A DNA stretch of 15,910 bases from UHGV virus genome UHGV-0065555; one strand, 5' to 3'. Below the pieces are notes generated by a model that ran no database searches, was not told the DNA's origin, and saw nothing but the letters and a program-made list of their open reading frames with translations. The number at the start of each line of letters is the position of its first letter. The first letter of the stretch is position 1. A program made the translations under genes and the position numbers. The stretch is from a virus. Below, piece by piece: positions 1 to 15,910 of the stretch.

Positions 1-2315
1 CAGGAACACGCGCGGATGGCGTCGCGTTCAGCATCGAGCAGGGTGCGGCGAACAATATCCTGCTGGCAAATGGCGGCGTGTTAACCGTGGAGTCAGACAC
101 CTCTTCTGACAAAACACAGGTCAATATGGGCGGACGGGAGATCGTCAAAACAAAAGCCACTGCGACAGGCACGACGCTCACCGGCGGTGAACAAATTGTC
201 GAGGGTGTGGCGAATGAGACAACAATTAACGACGGCGGAATACAAACAGTTTCAGCTAACGGAGAGGCAATAAAAACAAAGATCAATGAAGGCGGTACGC
301 TGACAGTCAACGATAATGGCAAAGCGACAGATATCGTCCAGAACAGCGGTGCCGCTCTCCAGACGAGCACGGCTAACGGTATTGAAATCAGCGGTACTCA
401 CCAGTACGGTACTTTTTCCATTTCCGGCAATTTAGCGACCAATATGTTGCTGGAAAATGGCGGTAATTTATTGGTATTAGCAGGTACCGAAGCTCGCGAC
501 TCCACGGTTGGCAAGGGTGGGGCAATGCAAAACCTGGGTCAGGACTCCGCCACAAAGGTTAACTCTGGCGGGCAATATACCCTTGGGCGGTCAAAAGATG
601 AGTTTCAGGCTCTGGCCCGGGCAGAAGATCTCCAGGTCGCTGGCGGTACGGCAATCGTCTACGCAGGTACGCTGGCGGATGCATCGGTCAGTGGCGCGAC
701 AGGAAGCCTGTCGTTAATGACGCCACGGGATAATGTTACGCCAGTTAAACTCGAAGGGGCGGTCCGGATTACCGATAGCGCGACATTGACTCTGGGAAAT
801 GGCGTCGATACCACGCTTGCCGACCTGACGGCTGCCAGCCGGGGCAGTGTCTGGCTTAACAGCAATAATTCCTGTGCAGGTACCAGCAACTGCGAATATA
901 GAGTAAACAGTTTGCTACTCAACGACGGTGATGTTTATTTGTCAGCACAAACAGCAGCGCCTGCCACAACTAACGGTATCTACAATACGCTGACAACCAA
1001 TGAACTTTCCGGTAGCGGTAATTTCTACCTGCATACCAACGTTGCAGGCTCCCGGGGCGATCAACTGGTCGTCAACAACAACGCCACTGGTAATTTTAAA
1101 ATCTTTGTTCAGGATACCGGCGTCAGCCCACAGTCTGACGACGCGATGACGCTGGTGAAAACAGGGGGAGGGGATGCTTCGTTTACGCTGGGCAATACCG
1201 GCGGTTTCGTTGATCTTGGGACCTATGAGTATGTCCTGAAAAGTGACGGCAACAGCAACTGGAACCTGACCAATGATGTAAAACCCAACCCGGACCCCAT
1301 CCCAAATCCAAAGCCAGACCCAAAACCCGATCCAAAGCCAGACCCAAATCCAAAACCAGACCCTACTCCCGATCCAACGCCGACACCCGTTCCGGAGAAA
1401 CGCATTACGCCTTCTACGGCAGCCGTACTCAATATGGCAGCAACATTACCGTTGGTATTTGATGCTGAGCTAAACAGTATTCGCGAGCGGTTGAACATAA
1501 TGAAAGCGAGTCCACACAACAATAATGTCTGGGGGGCGACGTATAACACCCGTAATAATGTCACCACCGATGCGGGTGCCGGGTTTGAGCAGACGCTGAC
1601 CGGAATGACAGTGGGGATCGACAGCCGTAATGATATTCCTGAAGGAATTACCACGCTAGGCGCTTTTATGGGCTATTCCCATTCACATATCGGTTTTGAT
1701 CGCGGAGGACATGGCAGTGTGGGCAGTTATTCTCTGGGCGGCTATGCCAGTTGGGAACATGAAAGTGGTTTCTATCTGGACGGTGTCGTGAAGCTGAACC
1801 GTTTTAAAAGTAACGTAGCAGGTAAAATGAGCAGCGGTGGAGCCGCCAATGGCAGTTACCACAGCAACGGGCTGGGCGGTCACATTGAAACCGGGATGCG
1901 ATTTACCGATGGTAACTGGAACCTGACGCCGTATGCATCGTTAACGGGGTTCACCGCTGATAACCCCGAATATCATTTATCCAATGGCATGAAATCGAAA
2001 TCAGTCGATACCCGCAGTATATATCGTGAACTGGGCGCAACGCTGAGTTACAACATGCGTCTGGGGAACGGTATGGAAGTTGAGCCGTGGCTGAAGGCGG
2101 CTGTGCGCAAAGAATTTGTCGATGATAACCGGGTGAAAGTGAATAGTGACGGTAATTTCGTCAATTATTTGTCGGGCAGACGTGGAATATACCAGGCAGG
2201 TATTAAAGCCTCATTCAGCAGTACGTTAAGCGGGCATCTTGGGGTGGGGTATAGCCATAGTGCCGGTGTGGAATCCCCGTGGAACGCGGTAGCTGGTGTG
2301 AACTGGTCGTTCTGA
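1..2315 (+). CDS. Type Va (AIDA-I/Ag43-like) autotransporter adhesin, 3' portion; 5' end lies outside the window
   Basis: Reading frame is open from the window edge (codons at 3,6,9...), so the GTG at 78 in the ORF track is not the true start. Passenger region is G/T/N/V-rich with recurring GG-x-x-V/T repeats typical of beta-helical passengers; Pro-rich linker PNPDPIPNPKPDPKPDP...; C-terminal beta-barrel segment ends ...AGVNWSF (aromatic terminal residue). Followed by a hairpin terminator. Confidence 0.85.
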   Translation, partial: GTRADGVAFSIEQGAANNILLANGGVLTVESDTSSDKTQVNMGGREIVKTKATATGTTLTGGEQIVEGVANETTINDGGIQTVSANGEAIKTKINEGGTLTVNDNGKATDIVQNSGAALQTSTANGIEISGTHQYGTFSISGNLATNMLLENGGNLLVLAGTEARDSTVGKGGAMQNLGQDSATKVNSGGQYTLGRSKDEFQALARAEDLQVAGGTAIVYAGTLADASVSGATGSLSLMTPRDNVTPVKLEGAVRITDSATLTLGNGVDTTLADLTAASRGSVWLNSNNSCAGTSNCEYRVNSLLLNDGDVYLSAQTAAPATTNGIYNTLTTNELSGSGNFYLHTNVAGSRGDQLVVNNNATGNFKIFVQDTGVSPQSDDAMTLVKTGGGDASFTLGNTGGFVDLGTYEYVLKSDGNSNWNLTNDVKPNPDPIPNPKPDPKPDPKPDPNPKPDPTPDPTPTPVPEKRITPSTAAVLNMAATLPLVFDAELNSIRERLNIMKASPHNNNVWGATYNTRNNVTTDAGAGFEQTLTGMTVGIDSRNDIPEGITTLGAFMGYSHSHIGFDRGGHGSVGSYSLGGYASWEHESGFYLDGVVKLNRFKSNVAGKMSSGGAANGSYHSNGLGGHIETGMRFTDGNWNLTPYASLTGFTADNPEYHLSNGMKSKSVDTRSIYRELGATLSYNMRLGNGMEVEPWLKAAVRKEFVDDNRVKVNSDGNFVNYLSGRRGIYQAGIKASFSSTLSGHLGVGYSHSAGVESPWNAVAGVNWSF
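1282..1395 (+). repeat. Short tandem codon repeats encoding a Pro-rich (P-D/N/K/T-P) linker inside the autotransporter
   Basis: DNA reads cc(a/c)(a/g)a(c/t)cc repeated; protein reads PNPDPIPNPKPDPKPDPKPDPNPKPDPTPDPTPTPVP. Confidence 0.6.
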
Positions 2316-2605: not shown

Positions 2606-3667
2606 TTAATGCTCTGCCGCCAAAGTGCCGCCATCATCAACTGTCACCGGTTTCTCCATTACGTATGCTGACCATTCAGGAGAATAGAATGGTTGCAAAA
2701 ATTTAGAAAATTGTTCTGTATCAAATTTAATTTCACCAATGTACAAGTAGTTATATATATTACTGTAGTTTTGAAGCTGAAATCCGTAAGCTAGTTTTAA
2801 TATCTTTTTAGATAGATAAAATGCAGCCTCAAGTGATTCGGCTAACATTGATTCTGTGGGGGTGAACGTTCTTATTTTAGTGCCGTTGATTTTTAACTCT
2901 ATATAGGCTATTGAGATACAATCTACGCATAAAGTATCTAATAATTTAGCTATGTTATATGAAATTGTATTTAATCTGGTAAGGTGATCTTCTGCATTTG
3001 AATGGGGTGTAACCTTATCTTTTGATAAGTTATTATTAATGGTATCTAGGATTGACAATATACTTTTTTTAAAGTTCTCGTCTGGTGAATAATTGGATGT
3101 GATATCCATTGACGATTCTGTATATATATTGGAATATAATAAGTATGGGTTTGAGATTTTAATTTCATGAGTTGTTAGTATTTTAATTTTGTTGCTATCA
3201 TTGTAATTATAATATTTTGATGCGTCATCTACAAAGCTTTGCATCGTAAAGCTTGATATTTCTTTAATTTTATCTACGAAATTTTTCTCATGAGCAAAAT
3301 GTCTATCGATTGCATTTTTGATTTCAGATGAATTAATTTGTGCTTCGGTTTGTATCGTTCTGTGAATGTTATTTACTATGGAAGCTAATGGTACAGAACT
3401 TGCGAGTATCAATAATGGGAATTTGCTTATCTCATAGAATCTGGCATATCCGTGAGCAGAAAGAACAGGTATTTTACCAAACCATGCAAATGCTCCAAAA
3501 TAAATGAATGACAGCAGTGGTACTGCAATTGAAATCCAAAATAATTTCTGTTGAAATAAATTTCTTTTATCGAGAATGTACCACTTTTTATATATTGATA
3601 CAAACGCAAAAAGAATAATTGCCAAAATATACACAATAATTCCAGTAAAGCTAGTATTAATGTTCAT
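2606..3667 (-). CDS. AT-rich predicted membrane protein (moron) between int and att; function unknown
   Basis: 353 aa; two to three N-terminal hydrophobic helices (FTGIIVYILAIILFAFVSIY, LFWISIAVPLLSFIYFGAFAWF) then an N/K/I/Y-rich soluble region. Very AT-rich versus neighbours. Its ATG overlaps the int stop (ATGA on the minus strand). Confidence 0.55.
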   Translation of the reverse strand: MNINTSFTGIIVYILAIILFAFVSIYKKWYILDKRNLFQQKLFWISIAVPLLSFIYFGAFAWFGKIPVLSAHGYARFYEISKFPLLILASSVPLASIVNNIHRTIQTEAQINSSEIKNAIDRHFAHEKNFVDKIKEISSFTMQSFVDDASKYYNYNDSNKIKILTTHEIKISNPYLLYSNIYTESSMDITSNYSPDENFKKSILSILDTINNNLSKDKVTPHSNAEDHLTRLNTISYNIAKLLDTLCVDCISIAYIELKINGTKIRTFTPTESMLAESLEAAFYLSKKILKLAYGFQLQNYSNIYNYLYIGEIKFDTEQFSKFLQPFYSPEWSAYVMEKPVTVDDGGTLAAEH

Positions 3668-4687: not shown

Positions 4688-5320
4688 TCAAAGGCTCTTA
4701 ATGATTTTCAGTGCGCGGCCTACTACCTCAATGTCATCCAGACCGCACTCAAACGATGAATCATCCTGATGCACTACTAATTTGTTTCCCGGGAGTCGAG
4801 TCAATTTAACGATGCTTTTTATCCCGTCGATATCGACTAACCACATACCATTTACTGGTGGTGTTTGGTTGCGATCTATTAAATAAGAATCACCAGAAGT
4901 AGTCACCAGCAGTAGGTTGCTTGAGTCTGAGGGGAGTATGCTGCTATCAATGATTGCTTTTCCAGCATCGACCAATAAACCACCGTTGAGAGTCGCCTTG
5001 TCAATTTCAGGAGATACTAGTTCAGAAAGAGGTACAACCTTGCTGGAGTTCACGGAATTGATATTTTTTTTAGGTTCAATGTTTGGACCTGGCTCCCCCT
5101 GTCCGGTGGTTAGCCACAGTAAAGAAACTCCTGTTTCCAAGGCGCACTGAATCACCCACTCTGCAGGAAAACTATCTCTTAAGTATCTGTTTGCCATGGT
5201 GCTTTTTGATGCGCCTAAGTGATCGCAAAGTTGCTGTCTGGACTTGAAATCATAGGCTGCCATTAGTCTATGGATAGCCTCTCTTCCCCCTGTATTCTCT
5301 CCAACCTTTACCTGTATCAT
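4688..5320 (-). CDS. cI: CI-type immunity repressor (186-like), N-terminal HTH
   Basis: 210 aa, divergent from the Cox/Apl-like gene and adjacent to int as in 186. HTH-like segment SRQQLCDHLGASKSTMANRYL; AGGA RBS 7 nt upstream of the ATG at 5320. Identification rests on position and architecture, not on an alignment. Confidence 0.6.
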   Translation of the reverse strand: MIQVKVGENTGGREAIHRLMAAYDFKSRQQLCDHLGASKSTMANRYLRDSFPAEWVIQCALETGVSLLWLTTGQGEPGPNIEPKKNINSVNSSKVVPLSELVSPEIDKATLNGGLLVDAGKAIIDSSILPSDSSNLLLVTTSGDSYLIDRNQTPPVNGMWLVDIDGIKSIVKLTRLPGNKLVVHQDDSSFECGLDDIEVVGRALKIIKSL

Positions 5321-7265: not shown

Positions 7266-8119
7266 GCACCATCCTGAAATGGGCGGGAAATAAAACCGCC
7301 ATTATGTCCGAACTGAAAAAGCATCTTCCTGCTGGCCCGCGACTGGTTGAACCTTTCGCGGGTTCCTGTGCAGTGATGATGGAGACGGAGTACCCCAGCT
7401 ATCTTGTTGCGGATATTAATCCTGATTTAATCAACCTCTATAAAAAGGTTGCTGCTGATTGTGAATCGTTTATATCTCGCGCCAGAGTTTTATTTGAGAT
7501 CGCAAACAGGGAGGTGGCTTATTACAACATAAGGCAGGAGTTTAATTACTCAACTGAAATTACTGATTTCATGAAAGCGGTATATTTCCTGTATCTCAAT
7601 CGTCACGGTTACCGTGGTTTATGTCGCTATAACAAGAGCGGGCATTTCAACATTCCCTACGGTAATTATAAAAATCCGTATTTCCCTGAAAAAGAAATTC
7701 GCGCATTTGCAGAAAAAGCCCAGCGAGCAACGTTTATCTGCGCCAGCTTTGATGAAACGCTGGCGATGTTGAAGGCAGGGGATGTGGTGTATTGCGATCC
7801 GCCGTATGACGGTACGTTTTCCGGCTATCACACTGATGGTTTCACTGAAGATGACCAGTATCACCTGGCATCCGTTCTTGAACATCGGTCATCAGAAGGA
7901 CATCCGGTCATTGTTTCTAACAGTGACACATCCCTGATCCGTTCGCTGTATCGCAATTTTACTCACCACTATATCAAGGTAAAACGCAGCATCGGTGTGG
8001 CAGCTGGCGAGGGTAAATCAGCAACAGAAATCATTGCTGTTTCCGGGCCGCGCTGCTGGGTGGGATTTGATTATTCGCGTGGCCTGGATAGTTCTGCCGT
8101 GTACGGAGTACGTGCATGA
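7262..8119 (+). CDS. dam: DNA N6-adenine methyltransferase, Dam/D12 class
   Basis: Start [11 protein letters not shown] at 7262 (ATGA overlap with the upstream gene). SAM-binding motif EPFAGSCAV and catalytic DPPY motif ([10 protein letters not shown]). Confidence 0.85.
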
Positions 8120-10530
8120 GCCATGCCGATATGAACAACTGCTGCGGCTTTAACGAGGCTGCCGCAGCGTTCTCATGGAACAGCCCGAAAAAGGCCATTA
8201 ACCCTTATCTGGACCCGGCGGAAGTTGCGCCGGTTTCTGCGCTTTCAAACCTGATCGCTCTGTACGCTGCCGATAACGAGCAGGAACACCTGCGCCGCGA
8301 GGCACTGAGTGATCAGGTCTGGGAGCGTTATTTCTTTAATGAATCCCGTGATCCTGTCCAGCGCGAAATGGAGCAGGATAAGCTCATTAGTCGGGCAAAG
8401 CTGGCGCATGAGCAGCAGCGTTTTAATCCAGATATGGTCATTCTGGCGGACGTCAATGCCCAGCCTTCCCATATCAGCAAGCCGCTGATGCAACGTATTG
8501 AATACTTCAGCAGCTTGGGCAGGCCAAAGGCTTATTCCCGCTATTTGCGTGAGACGATTAAGCCATGTTTGGAGCGACTGGAGCATGTACGCGACAGCCA
8601 GCTATCTGCATCTTTTCGTTTTATGGCAAGCCATGTAGGGCTGGACGACCTGCTGATTCTGCCTGAAATGAGTCAGGATCAGGTGAAACGCCTGTCTACT
8701 CTTGTCGCTGCGCATATGAGCATGTGTCTTGATGCCGCTTGTGGTGATTTGTACGCCACCGATGATGTTAAGCCAGAAGAAATCCGCAAGACATGGGAAA
8801 AGGTGGCAGCAGAAACCCTGCGACTGGATGTTATCCCGCCTGCGTTTGAGCAACTTCGTCGGAAAAGAAACCGCCGTAAACCCGTGCCCTATGAACTCAT
8901 TCCGGGTTCGCTGGCGCGTATGTTGTGCGCCGATTGGTGGTACCGGAAATTATGGAAGATGCGTTGCGAATGGCGGGAAGAGCAGTTGCGTGCTGTTTGC
9001 CTGGTCAGCAAAAAAGCATCTCCCTATGTCAGCTATGAAGCCGTGATGCATAAACGTGAGCAGCGCCGTAAGTCGCTGGAGTTTTTCCGTTCTCATGAAC
9101 TGGTGAACGAAGACGGCGACACGCTGGACATGGAGGATGTGGTAAACGCCAGCAGCAGCAACCCGGCGCATCGCCGCAATGAGATGATGGCCTGTGTTAA
9201 AGGTCTGGAGCTTATCGCAGAAATGCGCAGTGACTGTGCCGTTTTCTACACTATCACCTGTCCGTCGCGTTTCCATTCCACGCTCAATAACGGCAGACCA
9301 AACCCGACCTGGACAAACGCGACGGTAAGACAAAGCAGCGATTATCTGGTCGGCATGTTTGCTGCATTTCGTAAGGCTATGCACAAAGCCGGGTTGCGCT
9401 GGTATGGCGTGCGGGTGGCTGAACCGCATCATGACGGCACAGTTCACTGGCACCTGTTGTGTTTCATGCGCAAAAAAGACCGCCGCGCCATTACTGCATT
9501 GTTGCGTAAGTTTGCCATCCGTGAAGACCGCGAGGAGCTGGGCAATAACACGGGGCCACGCTTTAAGTCTGAGCTGATAAACCCGCGCAAAGGTACGCCA
9601 ACAAGCTACATCGCGAAATACATCAGTAAGAACATTGACGGGCGTGGTCTGGCTGGCGAGATCAGCAAGGAAACGGGTAAATCCCTGCGTGATAACGCTG
9701 AATACGTTAATGCCTGGGCGTCTCTGCATCGTGTTCAGCAATTCCGCTTCTTTGGCATTCCGGGGCGTCAGGCTTACCGTGAACTGCGATTGCTGGCTGG
9801 TCAGGCGGCAAGGCAACAGGGGGACAAAAAAGCAGGTGCGCCGGTACTGGATAACCCGCGCCTTGATGCAATCCTGGCTGCTGCTGATGCTGGTTGTTTT
9901 GCCACCTACATCATGAAGCAGGGCGGCGTACTGGTTCCCCGCAAATATCACCTCATCAGAACTGCTTATGAAATCAACGAAGAGCCGACCGCCTATGGCG
10001 ATCACGGTATTCGTATTTATGGCATCTGGTCACCCATTGCAGAGGGCAAGATCTGCACTCATGCGGTGAAGTGGAAAATGGTTCGTAAGGCCGTTGACGT
10101 TCAGGAGGCGGCAGCCGACCAGGGCGCTTGCGCCCCTTGGACTCGTGGCAATAACTGTCCCCTTGCTGAAAATTTGAACCAACAGGAGAAAGATAAATCA
10201 GCTGATGGGGACCCCAGAACGGACATTACCCGCATGGATGACAAGGTGTTGCACGATTACCTGCACAGTATGAACAAAAAGGAGCGCCGGGAATTGGCTG
10301 CAAGGTTACGTCTGGTGAAACCGAAACGGCGTAGAGACTACAAACAGCGAATTACAGACCATCAACGACAGCAGCTCGTCTATGAACTGAAATCCAGAGG
10401 ATTTGATGGCAGCGAGAAAGAGGTCGATTTACTCCTTCGCGGCGGCAGTATTCCGTCAGGAGCAGGCCTGCGTATCTTCTATCGGAACCAGCGTTTGCAG
10501 GAAGATGATAAGTGGCGGAACCTGTATTAA
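8116..10530 (+). CDS. A: Replication initiation endonuclease gpA (rolling-circle HUH nuclease)
   Basis: 804 aa; tandem-tyrosine motif YIAKYISK and histidine-rich H-x-H region (HHDGTVHWH); start overlaps the dam stop (ATGA). Size and position match P2/186 gene A. Confidence 0.85.
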
Positions 10531-10624
10531 TTACGCTGGTTAACAATTCGTGCTCTTAATAATATCAGGCATATCAGGCTGATAAGCGTAAAAAAAAACG
10601 TTTTACATCAGTAAGATTATTATA

Positions 10625-10644
10625 TACTGTAAATATAAACAGTG
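10625..10644 (+). promoter_or_regulatory. LexA (SOS) box overlapping a candidate -10 element
   Basis: TACTGTAAATATAAACAGTG fits CTGT-N8-ACAG with an AT-rich spacer; lies about 40 bp upstream of the ATG at 10686; a TTTACA -35-like hexamer sits upstream. Confidence 0.6.
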
Positions 10645-10685
10645 GTTATACATACAGTATTGCGTGTGGTGTCATAGGAGGAAAG

Positions 10686-10874
10686 ATGCAGGACTATTTT
10701 TTGGAGTCTTTGAAGCTCCAGCGCATTGATTTTTTTCTTAAGCTTGTAGCGGCTAGTGAGTGCGATGATGAAGAGAAGCGGCTTGCTATCCAGTGGGTTT
10801 CGGAGCTGACCGATGAGTTAATGGCGAAAATCCGTACTCATGAGTACAACCGTTCAATGGATCTCCCCGGTTAG
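10686..10874 (+). CDS. Small acidic protein under the putative LexA-controlled promoter
   Basis: 62 aa; AGGAGG RBS 4 nt before the ATG; followed by an imperfect hairpin at 10891-10923. Confidence 0.45.
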   Translation: MQDYFLESLKLQRIDFFLKLVAASECDDEEKRLAIQWVSELTDELMAKIRTHEYNRSMDLPG

Positions 10875-11459
10875 GCTTAGAAACGTTGCTGGCGTTAGGA
10901 CTTGATTCTGACGCTAGCAAGGTTGATCAACGAGCCATGCGAGGCGTTAGTCATGGGCAAAAAAATAGTAACTTCCAGATTTTGCTTCGTGCCAGGTATT
11001 GAGTAGTTTTATCGCCAGAGGGGCTGTTAGCGCTCAAACTACTAATGGAGCCACACCTTAGATGAGTGATTTGGCTTAAGCTATGATTATATAGTTTCGC
11101 TGTACGGCGGCCTTGCTTTTTATTGAAGCGACCAGACTGGAACAACGGCGAAAGGAGACTAACGATACGCACCAGTTTTTTGAAAAGGTACAGTTATCTA
11201 GATTGGTTGCCAATTTTCGTTGAAACCTGACATACCATTAGGTCATTGCTTTAGAAAAATTAATACTTGATGTGAGAATTGCTTCAAAACATCTAGAATT
11301 AAAGTTTCTTTACTAGTATGCTTCATCACTTGGTCGTTGGGTTGAGTGCAAAAGCTAAGGCTGATGCCCAGTACGCTATCCGCATTATTGCCAGAGAACC
11401 GATTCGAAACCGGAATCTGGCAGAGCATGGGCGCAAGTGCTGGCTTCCCAACGGCCTCG

Positions 11460-12428
11460 TTATTTATAATATGCTGACTTCAAAACCACTCGTCTTTCAA
11501 CCTGCTGTGATAGCATTACCGCGTTAGTCCAATCTTTTGGATACCTTATTTCTTCTATAACACGAATATAAGCACATACTTTATTTTTTCCCTCTCCTTT
11601 GGCATAAGTAACCTCTAGATTATTAAATTTCAATAAGTGCTCTCTTCTTTGGTAAGTAAAACAGCCGTAATCACGGACATCAGAAGAAGTAATAGCATGA
11701 GTTGAAGGAAACCGAACTAGTAAATTTCTCAAGTAGGGAATAATGTCCAAACTCGTTGCTTTGTTTTCTTCTCTGCGACTCTTTCTGAACATATGTCTCC
11801 AACCCAGCCGTGTAAGCTCGATTTTCCCAAGCACCGGAGATGTGATTTCTTTCTGTTCAGAATAACGTTTTTTAACAAACGCTCGCCGATTATTAAGTAG
11901 TGAGTTTCTTCTTCTTACATGGATTCCTTTTGCTCCAGTTTCACCTGCACGTACCATGGACATACAGCGAGCCAGGTCAAACCGTGTGGCCGGAGTGATT
12001 AAGTGATATTCTCCATAAGTTTGGTTTTTAAGGGTAGTGTTTGGATGTATATAGGCCCAAAATGCTTTACGATTAGTTCTGTCAACCCAAACGACACATA
12101 TATGGTGAGTTGTCCTTTTGGCTGCTTTTTTTGCGGCCGAATTTAATACAAAACCTTTCTCTAATAAATGACCATAAGTTGCCCCTGATTTAACTTGCGA
12201 TAATATAAGCATTCTTTCTTTTGATGCCCATGGATGTTCGAAGGATAATATTAAATCTATTTTTGAATTGTCGTCTTCCCTGGAACCCCAGTGCCCCTCT
12301 CCTCTACAAGCAAGAATGAATTGACTCATTGCATAAGATTCGGCGTCACTGCCGTTAACTGAGTTAAACTGTCTTGTTTCTAGCACAGTTGGTATTGGTC
12401 GTGATGCAAGTAAACTGAAAGATCCCAC
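11460..12428 (-). CDS. AT-rich cargo protein of unknown function, possible PD-(D/E)xK-like nuclease fold
   Basis: 322 aa; GTG start at 12428 with a GGAGAG RBS 8 nt upstream (first in-frame ATG would be at about 12329). Strongly AT-rich relative to phage core genes. N-terminal segment KIDLILSFEHPW...LILSQVK could be a degenerate D...(E/Q)xK motif, which is speculative. Basic C-terminal region. Confidence 0.55.
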   Translation of the reverse strand: MGSFSLLASRPIPTVLETRQFNSVNGSDAESYAMSQFILACRGEGHWGSREDDNSKIDLILSFEHPWASKERMLILSQVKSGATYGHLLEKGFVLNSAAKKAAKRTTHHICVVWVDRTNRKAFWAYIHPNTTLKNQTYGEYHLITPATRFDLARCMSMVRAGETGAKGIHVRRRNSLLNNRRAFVKKRYSEQKEITSPVLGKIELTRLGWRHMFRKSRREENKATSLDIIPYLRNLLVRFPSTHAITSSDVRDYGCFTYQRREHLLKFNNLEVTYAKGEGKNKVCAYIRVIEEIRYPKDWTNAVMLSQQVERRVVLKSAYYK

Positions 12429-13036: not shown

Positions 13037-13951
13037 ATGCCATACCAATTGGTAGAGCTTAGCCCCGTAGCTAACGATCTTGAACAGTTAGGAACCAAAG
13101 AGAAGTTTTGGTTCTATTTCTCCGATGACACTGTAAATTTGCAGTTGTTTAAGTACTCTAGGCCAGGTACTGGCGAGCATTGGTCTGAAAAGTGTGCTGC
13201 TGAGTTATGTCATTTGCTTAACATTCCACATGCTAGCTATGATTTGGCGCGATACAATGGTCGATTCGGTGTGGTGACTCAGAATATCATTCCATCTGGT
13301 TTCCGGATGGTAATGGGAAATGAAGTGCTTCACAGTTCGACATTCGATTATCCTGGGCCTTTACAAGCCGGGGAAAAGCCGGTAAGGGTCAGAGAACACA
13401 CTGTCACAAGGGTATTGGGTTGTTTGGATAGGGAATCTATCAAGCCTCCTCCGAGTGTATATGATCTAACCGGGCTAAATGCAGCAGATGTATTTTGTGG
13501 ATATTTGATGCTCGATGCACTTGTGAGTAATCAAGATCGCCATCATGAAAATTGGGCGATCATGCTTAACAATGAAACTGGTGAGCAGTTTTTGTGTCCA
13601 ACATACGATCATGCCGCTAGTTTAGGAAGGGAGATGTTAGATGATGAGCGTAACGAACGGCTTAATACTAAAGATAAAAATCGACAAATCCCATGTTTTG
13701 TAAGAAAAGCTCGCTCTGAGCTATTCAAAGCAAAAACTGATAAAAAGCCCTTGCTGACCGTTGAAGCATTTCAACATGCAGTTGAAGGGAGAGTTGCCGC
13801 TCGCGACCATTGGTTAGGTAAGTTGAGCGTTTTAACAGAAGATTCCATTACAGATGTGTTTAACCAAGTGCCTTCATCGTGTATATCCGACAGTGCACGT
13901 AGATTTGCAACGTTAATGGTAATGGAAAATCGCAGAAGGTTACTAGAATGA
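13037..13951 (+). CDS. HipA-family Ser/Thr kinase, core kinase domain only (HipT-like)
   Basis: 304 aa. Gly-rich/ATP loop LGTKEKF (HipA ..AGAQEK..); catalytic loop LVSNQDRHHENWAIM (HipA ..GATDGHAKNFSV..); Mg-binding CPTYD (HipA ..TPFYD..). Lacks the HipA N-subdomain. AGGGA RBS. Confidence 0.8.
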   Translation: MPYQLVELSPVANDLEQLGTKEKFWFYFSDDTVNLQLFKYSRPGTGEHWSEKCAAELCHLLNIPHASYDLARYNGRFGVVTQNIIPSGFRMVMGNEVLHSSTFDYPGPLQAGEKPVRVREHTVTRVLGCLDRESIKPPPSVYDLTGLNAADVFCGYLMLDALVSNQDRHHENWAIMLNNETGEQFLCPTYDHAASLGREMLDDERNERLNTKDKNRQIPCFVRKARSELFKAKTDKKPLLTVEAFQHAVEGRVAARDHWLGKLSVLTEDSITDVFNQVPSSCISDSARRFATLMVMENRRRLLE

Positions 13952-14688
13952 CTAATACAAACTCCGTTTACGTCGCATGGCAGGCACCAGATACCAGAGA
14001 CTGGCATGTTGTTGGTAACTTGCAAGAGCGCAAATCGGGGTATGTTTTCAGGTATACCAAAGGTGCTCTTAAATCTACTAAATTTACAAAGTTTAGCGGC
14101 ATGAGTGATGTTCGTGAAACTTATGTTTCGGAAGAATTGTTTCCTCTTTTTAAAAATCGCCTTTTATCACCGAGACGTCCAGAGTATCCGAGTTTCATTA
14201 AATGGCTTGGATTTGAAGAAGATAAGGTAAATCCTATCGATATTCTTGCTCGCTCGGGAGGCTTACGAAGCACTGATCAGCTGCAGATTTTCAAAAAAAT
14301 TGATGTTGATTCTGATGGTAACTTTGAGCATTTTTTCTTCTTACATGGACTTGGTTACTTAAATAGCTTAGCTAATGCTCGTGTATCTGAATTGAAACCG
14401 GGGCAAATTTTGCGTCTTTGCTTGGATCTTCAAAATGAATACGATGGGGATGCTGTTGTCGTTCGTGCAGATAAACCAGCTGAAATCGTTGGTTACTGCC
14501 CTAGGTATTTAAGTAATGATATCAAGAAGATGTTATTGGATGATCCAAAATCAATCACTTTAACGGTCGAAAAGATTAGCGATGATGCTCCTCATAACTA
14601 TCGGTTATTATGTAAATTATCAGGAGTACTAAGCCAAGCCTGTCAATCGACGCTGATTCCTCAGGATGAGTTTGAACCTATTGAGTAA
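13948..14688 (+). CDS. HipA N-subdomain-like (HipS-like) protein fused to a C-terminal HIRAN domain
   Basis: 246 aa; ATG overlaps the kinase stop (ATGA). N-terminal part aligns by eye to HipA residues about 10-100 (VGNLQERKSGYVFRY vs VGELTKLANGAHTFKY; LFPLFKNRLLSPRRPE vs FNFFDNLLPDSP; DILARSGG vs DLLSEIGRD). C-terminal part GQILRLCLDLQNEYDGDAVVVRADKPAEIVGYCPRYLSNDIKKMLL fits the HIRAN consensus. Confidence 0.7.
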   Translation: MTNTNSVYVAWQAPDTRDWHVVGNLQERKSGYVFRYTKGALKSTKFTKFSGMSDVRETYVSEELFPLFKNRLLSPRRPEYPSFIKWLGFEEDKVNPIDILARSGGLRSTDQLQIFKKIDVDSDGNFEHFFFLHGLGYLNSLANARVSELKPGQILRLCLDLQNEYDGDAVVVRADKPAEIVGYCPRYLSNDIKKMLLDDPKSITLTVEKISDDAPHNYRLLCKLSGVLSQACQSTLIPQDEFEPIE

Positions 14689-14722: not shown

Positions 14723-15760
14723 TTATGGGACTATATCTAGCGAGTAGGTATTAAACTGTATCGCCTCCTTGCCAAGCCAATCATTCATCTCCTGTAATCG
14801 CTTTTGTAGTGGCATTAGCTCATTTCGGACGAATACACGGCTTGCCTTTTCCACATCCCCAAACCCCCCAACATTATTCGGCATAATCCCCATCATTTGC
14901 GGCGGCACGCGGTGCGCTGCCATCATGTCATCCCGACTCACGTTCTTGATGTTAAGAAATTCATCCTTCGCCGCGACTTCTGACAATGGGATGATCTGAA
15001 GCCCGTCTTTTTTGCCGTTAGGTGAGTACATAAACAGGTTGCGGAAGTTGCCTGGACCTTTGGCGCTTTTCATCGCGTTGCGGAGGTTGTTCACATCCTC
15101 CTGATTCTGCGCGGCATCGGTCATGTACATGATGAAGCCTGCATGGCTGCCGTTAATGTAATACTTACGGCGGAACAACGTGGCGGACTCGTTGAGCAGG
15201 GCTGACGGAATGGCAGAAAGATAACCGGGCAGGCCGTAGATCTCCTGGTTGATATCCGGTTCCATCAGATGAAAGATGCTGCCTTTCGTGAACTGATACG
15301 GCTGCGTAGTCATGCCGTATTGCACAAACCAGTAGGTATCCAGGTCTAACCCGCGTCGGGTGTATTTTGCCAGAGCAGGCTCAAGGGCGATAACTTCACC
15401 GAAGCGGTTCGTGCGTTTCTCCAGGTAGGCGTTACCAAATACCAGATAGTCCTGCACAAAACGTGAAAAAGCCTGCTGGCTGAGCAGCGGGTGGGGGATG
15501 TAGGTACTGGTCAGAATGTTGCATTTCACCGCAATTGGTGAACTGTGATGCACGGCGGCGCGGAAGGTGCGCGCCAGTCCGTCAAAGCTTACTGGCGGCT
15601 CATACCAGCGATCTGTCTGTACGCATTCCACATAGTCCAGTAGTTCGCGGCGGTCCAGAACAGGAACGGGATCACCGAAGCTGAATGCTTCGGCTGTAGT
15701 TTGACTTTTATGCTGGATCTGGTTCGTCGACGCAGCGCGGTTCTTCTTACTCTTTCCCAT
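14723..15760 (-). CDS. Q: Portal (capsid vertex) protein gpQ
   Basis: About 345 aa on the minus strand next to the cos region, as for P2 Q; real ATG at 15758-15760 (the ORF-track start at 15763 is TTG); start overlaps the stop of the upstream terminase gene. Confidence 0.8.
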   Translation of the reverse strand: MGKSKKNRAASTNQIQHKSQTTAEAFSFGDPVPVLDRRELLDYVECVQTDRWYEPPVSFDGLARTFRAAVHHSSPIAVKCNILTSTYIPHPLLSQQAFSRFVQDYLVFGNAYLEKRTNRFGEVIALEPALAKYTRRGLDLDTYWFVQYGMTTQPYQFTKGSIFHLMEPDINQEIYGLPGYLSAIPSALLNESATLFRRKYYINGSHAGFIMYMTDAAQNQEDVNNLRNAMKSAKGPGNFRNLFMYSPNGKKDGLQIIPLSEVAAKDEFLNIKNVSRDDMMAAHRVPPQMMGIMPNNVGGFGDVEKASRVFVRNELMPLQKRLQEMNDWLGKEAIQFNTYSLDIVP

Positions 15761-15910
15761 CAAAAAATCTCCACAATATTACTGGTATTGGCGGACTCGC
15801 CCTGCAGTGGTTCGTTAAACAGTGCGTGCATTGTTGCCCAGGCCAGATCGGCGTGGCTGGCTTCTTCGCTGCGGCTGGCTTCATAGGTTGGGCGGTTGCC
15901 ACTGGCGGTG
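15760..15910 (-). CDS. P: Terminase ATPase subunit gpP, 3' end only (5' end outside the window)
   Basis: Minus-strand frame open from the window edge to a TGA at 15760-15762 that overlaps the Q start (TGATG). Call rests on the conserved P-Q order of P2-like phages. Confidence 0.5.
   Translation of the reverse strand, partial: TASGNRPTYEASRSEEASHADLAWATMHALFNEPLQGESANTSNIVEIF

Follow-up and report, generated by a model that had tools for sequence, protein, structure and literature searches.

A 62-codon gene behind an SOS box after gene A of a P2-like Escherichia coli prophage, probably the stand-alone form of the antirepressor gene tum

Described tum genes and the locus after gene A

In phage 186, the gene that follows A behind the LexA-repressed promoter p95 is annotated as tum, and its product is reported to bind the CI repressor and to prevent CI from binding its operators (Shearwin 1998, as cited in PMC3121763). 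Lemire et al. described that the second half of 186 Tum resembles DinI, that tum is split by a stop codon in Fels-2 and PSP3, and that the antirepressor activity lies in the upstream gene of the split tum of PSP3 (PMC3121763). In the annotation of PSP3, a gene tumA of 60 aa, noted as "similar to 5' end 186 tum; UV induction of prophage", stands after gene A behind a LexA box, and a separate DinI homologue, tumB, comes after it. In E. coli HS, ECHS_RS04495 is the tum gene of prophage DuoHS; its in-frame deletion abolishes induction by mitomycin C, and neither the tum deletion strain nor a lexA(Ind-) strain shows lysis or virions after mitomycin C treatment (PMC12055606). Two modules, an antirepressor and a DinI-like one, are fused in 186 Tum, whereas Fels-2, PSP3 and HS encode them in separate genes.

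How does the present locus compare with these systems? The window, that is, the whole stretch of 15,910 nucleotides that was analysed, holds the following features from gene A to the end of the small gene after it, together with the repressor gene further upstream.

8116-10530, plus strand: replication gene A, 804 aa (Pfam Phage_GPA, E 1e-126)
10602-10607, plus strand: TTTACA, -35 hexamer of the tum promoter, conserved in relatives and laid out as in 186 p95
10625-10644, plus strand: SOS (LexA) box 1, TACTGTAAATATAAACAGTG, matching the LexA consensus at 17 of 20 positions
10625-10630, plus strand: TACTGT, putative -10 hexamer inside SOS box 1, assigned by analogy with 186 p95
10640-10659, plus strand: SOS box 2, a degenerate box of the form GTG-N10-CAG, CAGTGGTTATACATACAGTA, with five mismatches to the consensus and a 5-nt overlap with box 1
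10676-10681, plus strand: Shine-Dalgarno sequence AGGAGG, as read from the sequence, 4 nt before the ATG
10686-10874, plus strand: tum (tumA-type), 62 aa, predicted from homology and synteny to be an antirepressor of the prophage CI
4688-5320, minus strand: cI repressor gene of the 186 type (Pfam Phage_CI_repr and Phage_CI_C)

The first-pass annotation of this DNA had described a near-consensus SOS box over a putative -10, a strong ribosome binding site and an acidic ORF of 62 aa directly after gene A, the prophage having CI and CII of the 186 type. All of these features are found. The ORF begins 155 nt after the stop codon of gene A, its product has 13 acidic and 8 basic residues by manual count, and the prophage also encodes an integrase, CII (CP76; Pfam Phage_CP76) and a Dam methylase. 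The same annotation offered an SOS-induced, Tum-like antirepressor as one reading of the ORF, and this is the reading that the analysis supports, through the HS orthologue with its identical promoter and through a profile match to 186 Tum. We consider with high confidence that the ORF is the antirepressor gene tum, in the split, stand-alone "tumA" form, of a Fels-2/186-type (P2-like) E. coli prophage. It is an already-known kind of gene that has an experimentally characterised close orthologue.

The orthologues in E. coli HS (ECHS_RS04495) and Fels-2 (STM2728) are both 62 aa long, are 92-93% identical to the window ORF (92% for HS) and stand after gene A, which in HS is annotated as a replication endonuclease gene. 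The -35 hexamer, the spacer and both SOS boxes are identical in the three prophages, and the HS promoter equals that of the window base for base over the -35, the spacer and the SOS region. The differences are found at the other end of the gene. In HS and Fels-2 about 10 nt separate tum from the start of the DinI-like gene tumB, whereas tum of the window is followed by a hairpin and then by unrelated cargo. The sequence ceases to be homologous to that of Fels-2, HS and Klebsiella phages about 9 nt short of the tum stop codon, and the last residues are LPG in the window versus VIS or VIN in HS and Fels-2, with the last two codons differing. The cognate CI repressors differ as well, that of the window prophage being 44% identical to HS CI and 58% to Fels-2 CI.

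The tum promoter and its double operator

No CTGT-N8-ACAG other than TACTGTAAATATAAACAGTG occurs in the 15.9 kb of the window, nor does any other sequence there match the 20-nt LexA consensus with three or fewer mismatches; none of 200 dinucleotide-preserving shuffles gave such a match. Judged from its sequence, box 1 is probably bound by LexA. Where, then, is the -10 hexamer of the promoter? In the annotation of 186 p95 the -10 is likewise TACTGT within the LexA site, in a layout that matches the one seen here, and by this analogy the TACTGT of box 1 would be the -10 of the tum promoter, with a spacer of 17 nt to the -35 hexamer. A generic promoter scan did not call the tum promoter, because TACTGT agrees with TATAAT at just three of six positions.

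For comparison among relatives, 35 loci were collected from one-genome-per-species contigs with a single-sequence query, and the genera covered include Escherichia, Citrobacter, Klebsiella, Enterobacter, Pantoea, Erwinia, Tatumella and Serratia. Of 41 related loci, which come from about 20 enterobacterial genera, 38 keep a CTG-N10-CAG box 5' of the ORF, and the bases flanking it vary. In nearly all of these 38 loci TTTACA or a close variant stands 17-18 nt 5' of the box, and the spacer between them is variable in sequence. One of the three loci without the box is on a contig too short to include it, and the other two have a decayed box. The box of Erwinia piriflorinigrans (L039) has no CAG half, and the tum ORF there is 63 aa long with an altered C-terminus; that of Siccibacter turicensis (L043) has no CAG half either, and the tum ORF is cut to 20 aa. 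This apparent joint decay of box and ORF indicates that the box is tied to the gene. The start region is conserved too: (T)AGGAGG(G/A)AA(G/A)ATG is kept across most related loci, with some variants.

Is box 1 the whole operator? Box 2 was absent from the first-pass annotation. It starts at +15 relative to box 1, and in 30 of the 38 loci the best second-box match falls at this same fixed offset. Among these 30 loci the second box has three to six mismatches to the consensus in 28 and reads GTG-N10-CAG in 26; six or fewer mismatches are found in 0.04% of random sequences of equal base composition. The possibility that box 2 is a second canonical CTG-N10-CAG box was considered and rejected, as it reads GTG-N10-CAG, the form that occurs in colicin operators.

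A 44-nt query spanning both boxes matched 963 plasmids. The three plasmid matches that were inspected lie just 5' of the genes for colicin E1 (cea), pesticin (pst) and a klebicin-like tRNase bacteriocin. The 35-nt operator of the window, TACTGTAAATATAAACAGTGGTTATACATACAGTA, shares 84-87% identity with those of cea, pst and the klebicin-like gene at an equal box offset, and when it is aligned with the colE1 operator, TGCTGTATATAAAACCAGTGGTTATATGTACAGTA, a shared architecture is seen. At the level of sequence, the tum operator thus has the colicin-type arrangement of two 20-nt LexA boxes that overlap at a fixed offset. Colicin operators are bound by two LexA dimers in a cooperative manner (PMC2994835), and the likeness of the operators suggests that two LexA dimers may also sit at the tum operator, with box 2 occupied. 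There are differences between the two systems. The colicin, pesticin and klebicin operators drive bacteriocins, whereas the tum operator drives a phage antirepressor; and, in our own reading of the alignment, the colE1 boxes appear to lie just downstream of the -10, whereas box 1 of tum overlaps it.

The operator also differs from those of the phages named at the outset. In phage 186 there is one SOS box, some 38 nt from the start codon, while the double box of the window is 61 nt away, and PSP3 also has a single box. Single SOS boxes are seen as well in loci from Tatumella, Pantoea and Erwinia (L032-L041), where the distance to the ATG is either about 40 nt, much like that of 186, or about 96 nt; in 186, PSP3 and most of the Pantoea and Erwinia loci the box is nearer to the start codon than in the window. 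These single-box relatives indicate that the tum family has two promoter architectures.

The 62-codon ORF and its surroundings

Is such a short ORF a real gene? It has exactly 62 codons in 36 of 41 related loci. The median dN/dS is 0.07 in the frame of the ORF, versus 1.3 and 2.4 in the wrong frames, and the variable columns at codon positions 1, 2 and 3 number 29, 17 and 56, respectively. The ORF is a real gene under strong purifying selection. Its protein matches phrog_698 (function unknown; E 1e-36), and no family in Pfam (at E<=0.01), NCBIfam or PADLOC covers it. An AlphaFold2 model built from a 27-sequence alignment predicts a two-helix hairpin with helices at residues 2-23 and 28-58, no strands and a pLDDT of 87. 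A Foldseek search with this model against viral and PDB libraries returned generic helical hairpins alone, none of them at E<=0.001, and a profile search of PDB sequences gave no relative of the protein. In public databases, many entries lengthen tum to 87-109 aa relative to the 62-codon ORF (proteins P0002-P0082); the entry that was checked (L001:4043-4333) starts about 100 nt upstream, within the promoter region. Some entries name the product "levan regulatory (domain) protein". Both the long starts and the "levan regulatory" names look like annotation artefacts.

What relation does this protein have to the Tum proteins of 186 and PSP3? The first-pass annotation proposed aligning the product to 186 Tum and to DinI. 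Pairwise BLASTP gave no alignment of the ORF product with 186 Tum or with PSP3 TumA, nor of 186 Tum with PSP3 TumA. Comparison at the level of profiles did succeed for 186 Tum. A family profile of 27 diverse members aligned residues 3-45 of the family with residues 3-45 of 186 Tum (hhalign probability 95%, E 3.6e-8). When the family HMM was run with hmmsearch on the six-frame ORFs of 186, PSP3, three plasmids and the window, 433 in all, the N-terminus of 186 Tum was the sole non-self match (35.8 bits, E 3e-7 at Z=1e6). The match of the family profile to PSP3 TumA is marginal (E 0.0026, probability 11%). The window gene resembles 186 tum in its promoter, where an SOS box covers a putative TACTGT -10 and LexA would repress, in its place directly after gene A and, at the profile level, in the N-terminal 45 residues or so of the protein; by analogy, it would also share the role of an SOS-induced antirepressor against a 186-type CI. 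186 Tum differs in its length of 146 aa, in the DinI-like domain fused at its C-terminus and in its internal starts. With PSP3 the window gene shares the split architecture, in which the upstream gene stands after gene A behind a LexA box, and it differs in that the sequence relation of TumA to the window protein is at the edge of detection and that the window is without tumB.

The missing tumB was another point absent from the first-pass annotation. A tblastn search with the DinI-like TumB of Fels-2 found no match in the window, so that tum is accompanied by neither a fused nor an adjacent DinI-like module. The same is true elsewhere: tumB is absent in about 15 of the 35 species loci, which keep an intact box and tum, and it is also missing from other E. 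coli prophages with different cargo. The DinI-like module is dispensable for membership in the Tum/TumA family.

Could the ORF then be no more than what is left of a longer fused Tum of the 186 kind, truncated by the loss of its DinI-like half and without function? A truncated remnant was an option in the first-pass annotation, which remarked correctly that the ORF is much shorter than 186 Tum, which is the fused form. The difference in length, the lack of DinI-like sequence in the window by tblastn and the end of homology to Fels-2 and HS shortly before the stop codon would all fit a remnant. However, 62 codons are the norm of the family, also where a separate DinI-like gene comes next, the dN/dS value contradicts a remnant, the species loci without a DinI-like gene keep box and ORF intact, and the HS gene of the same length is functional. 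We regard the remnant as highly improbable; 62 residues are the native full length of the stand-alone antirepressor module.

The other option in the first-pass annotation, a DinI-like modulator, in this case of RecA filaments, has still less to recommend it, and we give it scarcely any credence. Like DinI, the ORF product is small, acidic and presumably SOS-regulated, and DinI-like genes occur in the same neighbourhood in relatives. But the product has no Pfam match, to the DinI family (PF06183) or to any other; relatives encode the DinI-like TumB in a distinct gene next to tum, and the TumB of Fels-2 finds no counterpart in the window. The predicted two-helix hairpin without strands would not fit the DinI fold either.

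We now turn to the surroundings of the gene, for which the following features are needed.

78-2315, plus strand: AIDA/Pertactin/autotransporter beta-domain protein (Ag43-like), just outside the left end of the prophage
2606-3667, minus strand: ORF of 353 aa adjoining the integrase gene on the side far from cI, near the left end of the prophage, with phrog_17460 (function unknown) as the sole match
10886-10920, plus strand: 15-bp hairpin directly 3' of the tum stop codon (outer pairs 10882-10924), from folding, with no U-tract
11460-12428, minus strand: ORF of 322 aa (289 aa in PGAP), in the same hotspot as the cassette below
13037-13951 and 13948-14688, plus strand: two-gene cassette, PADLOC candidate defence system PDC-M03A/B (E 2e-122 and 3e-93)
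14723-15763, strand opposite to tum: portal gene

The position of tum is conserved. Of the 35 species loci, all but one have tum after sequence homologous to A, and that one is a contig of 1.2 kb; gene A itself is truncated or decayed in several of the 35. A 1.1-kb stretch around tum has a 99.8%-identical copy in E. coli 442/2 (CP076282), in an apparently complete P2-like prophage. What comes after tum is variable, the interval between gene A and the portal gene being a defence hotspot of P2 (PMC13586616). The PDC-M03A/B cassette lies in this gpA-portal hotspot, and its second protein is a HIRAN-domain protein according to PGAP. The 322-aa ORF had no match in Pfam, PHROGs, NCBIfam or PADLOC, and between it and tum there is a stretch of 585 nt without annotated gene. 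At the other end of the prophage, the 353-aa ORF may be cargo of a minor integrase-att hotspot.

The hairpin after tum stands where the conserved backbone gives way to the variable cargo. Its folding energy is about -37 kcal/mol in context. The six loci with the "LPG" allele of tum and without tumB all conserve its stem, which shows two compensatory pairs among them. A generic terminator scan did not call it, and a search of the whole window against Rfam gave no RNA family. From its sequence and position, the hairpin could possibly serve as a transcript end or as an insulator before the cargo.

The CI repressor as the presumed target of Tum

What would the product of tum act on? From the case of 186 (PMC3121763, PMC7708051), the 186-type CI encoded at 4688-5320 is presumed to be its target, and by the same analogy the window Tum would bind the window CI directly. 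In a lysogen, LexA on the operator would block the tum promoter, as box 1 lies over the -10, and a second LexA dimer would probably sit on the overlapping box 2. Upon DNA damage, RecA would be activated and LexA would cleave itself. The small helical-hairpin Tum would then be made, bind the prophage CI and keep it off its operators; with CI removed, the lytic promoter would fire and the prophage would be induced.

One observation deserves attention when Tum is compared with its partner. Across 25 species loci, the identity of Tum to the window protein ranges from 70 to 97% with a median of 87%, while for the paired CI proteins the median is 64% over the N-terminal DNA-binding domain and 32% over the C-terminal domain. 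Near-identical Tum proteins are seen paired with quite different CI proteins (the window versus L007-L042). Either the surface of CI that Tum contacts is a conserved one, for which the N-terminal domain is the more plausible place, or Tum is a generalist. Transferring the HS phenotype to the window assumes that Tum tolerates the divergence between the two CI proteins, and given the mismatch in conservation between Tum and CI we do not treat this transfer as certain.

Might the ORF be SOS-induced and yet not directed against CI? It could act instead on Apl, CII, a host function or the defence cargo, the phenotype in HS being indirect or polar; a polar effect of the HS deletion on the DinI-like gene downstream could in principle account for it. 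CI binding is biochemically established for 186 Tum alone, which is a remote sequence. So much stronger conservation of Tum than of CI is unusual for a specific partner, and tum adjoins a variable defence hotspot. Against this stand the homology of the ORF product to the N-terminus of 186 Tum, a biochemically shown CI antirepressor (PMC3121763), the fact that the HS deletion is in frame and that the lost induction is exactly the phenotype expected, and the presence of tum whichever cargo comes after it. An action on something other than CI is therefore unlikely, although we give it more weight than the remnant or the DinI-like modulator, and the antirepressor of the prophage CI is the reading that we keep.

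If the operator and the conservation pattern are taken together, a further scenario can be drawn, which we hold tentatively and with somewhat less than even confidence. The Fels-2-type tum promoters, that of the window among them, would share with colicin and pesticin genes a double operator that gives a colicin-like response, namely very tight repression and late relief above a threshold of damage. The near-invariant Tum would be a generalist that acts on CI repressors whose C-terminal domains differ by up to about 70%, and it would co-induce co-resident P2-like prophages of different immunity.

The value of the present analysis is mainly for annotation. The junction of A and tum occurs in about 20% of complete E. 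coli genomes, and the tum family has no function assigned in Pfam, NCBIfam or PHROG; its members go by the name "hypothetical" or by the misleading "levan regulatory protein". The double operator and the mismatch in conservation between Tum and CI are modest, testable refinements of what is known. As tum decides the SOS inducibility of a very common class of prophages in E. coli, Salmonella and Klebsiella, recognising the gene makes the inducibility of P2-like prophages predictable from sequence.
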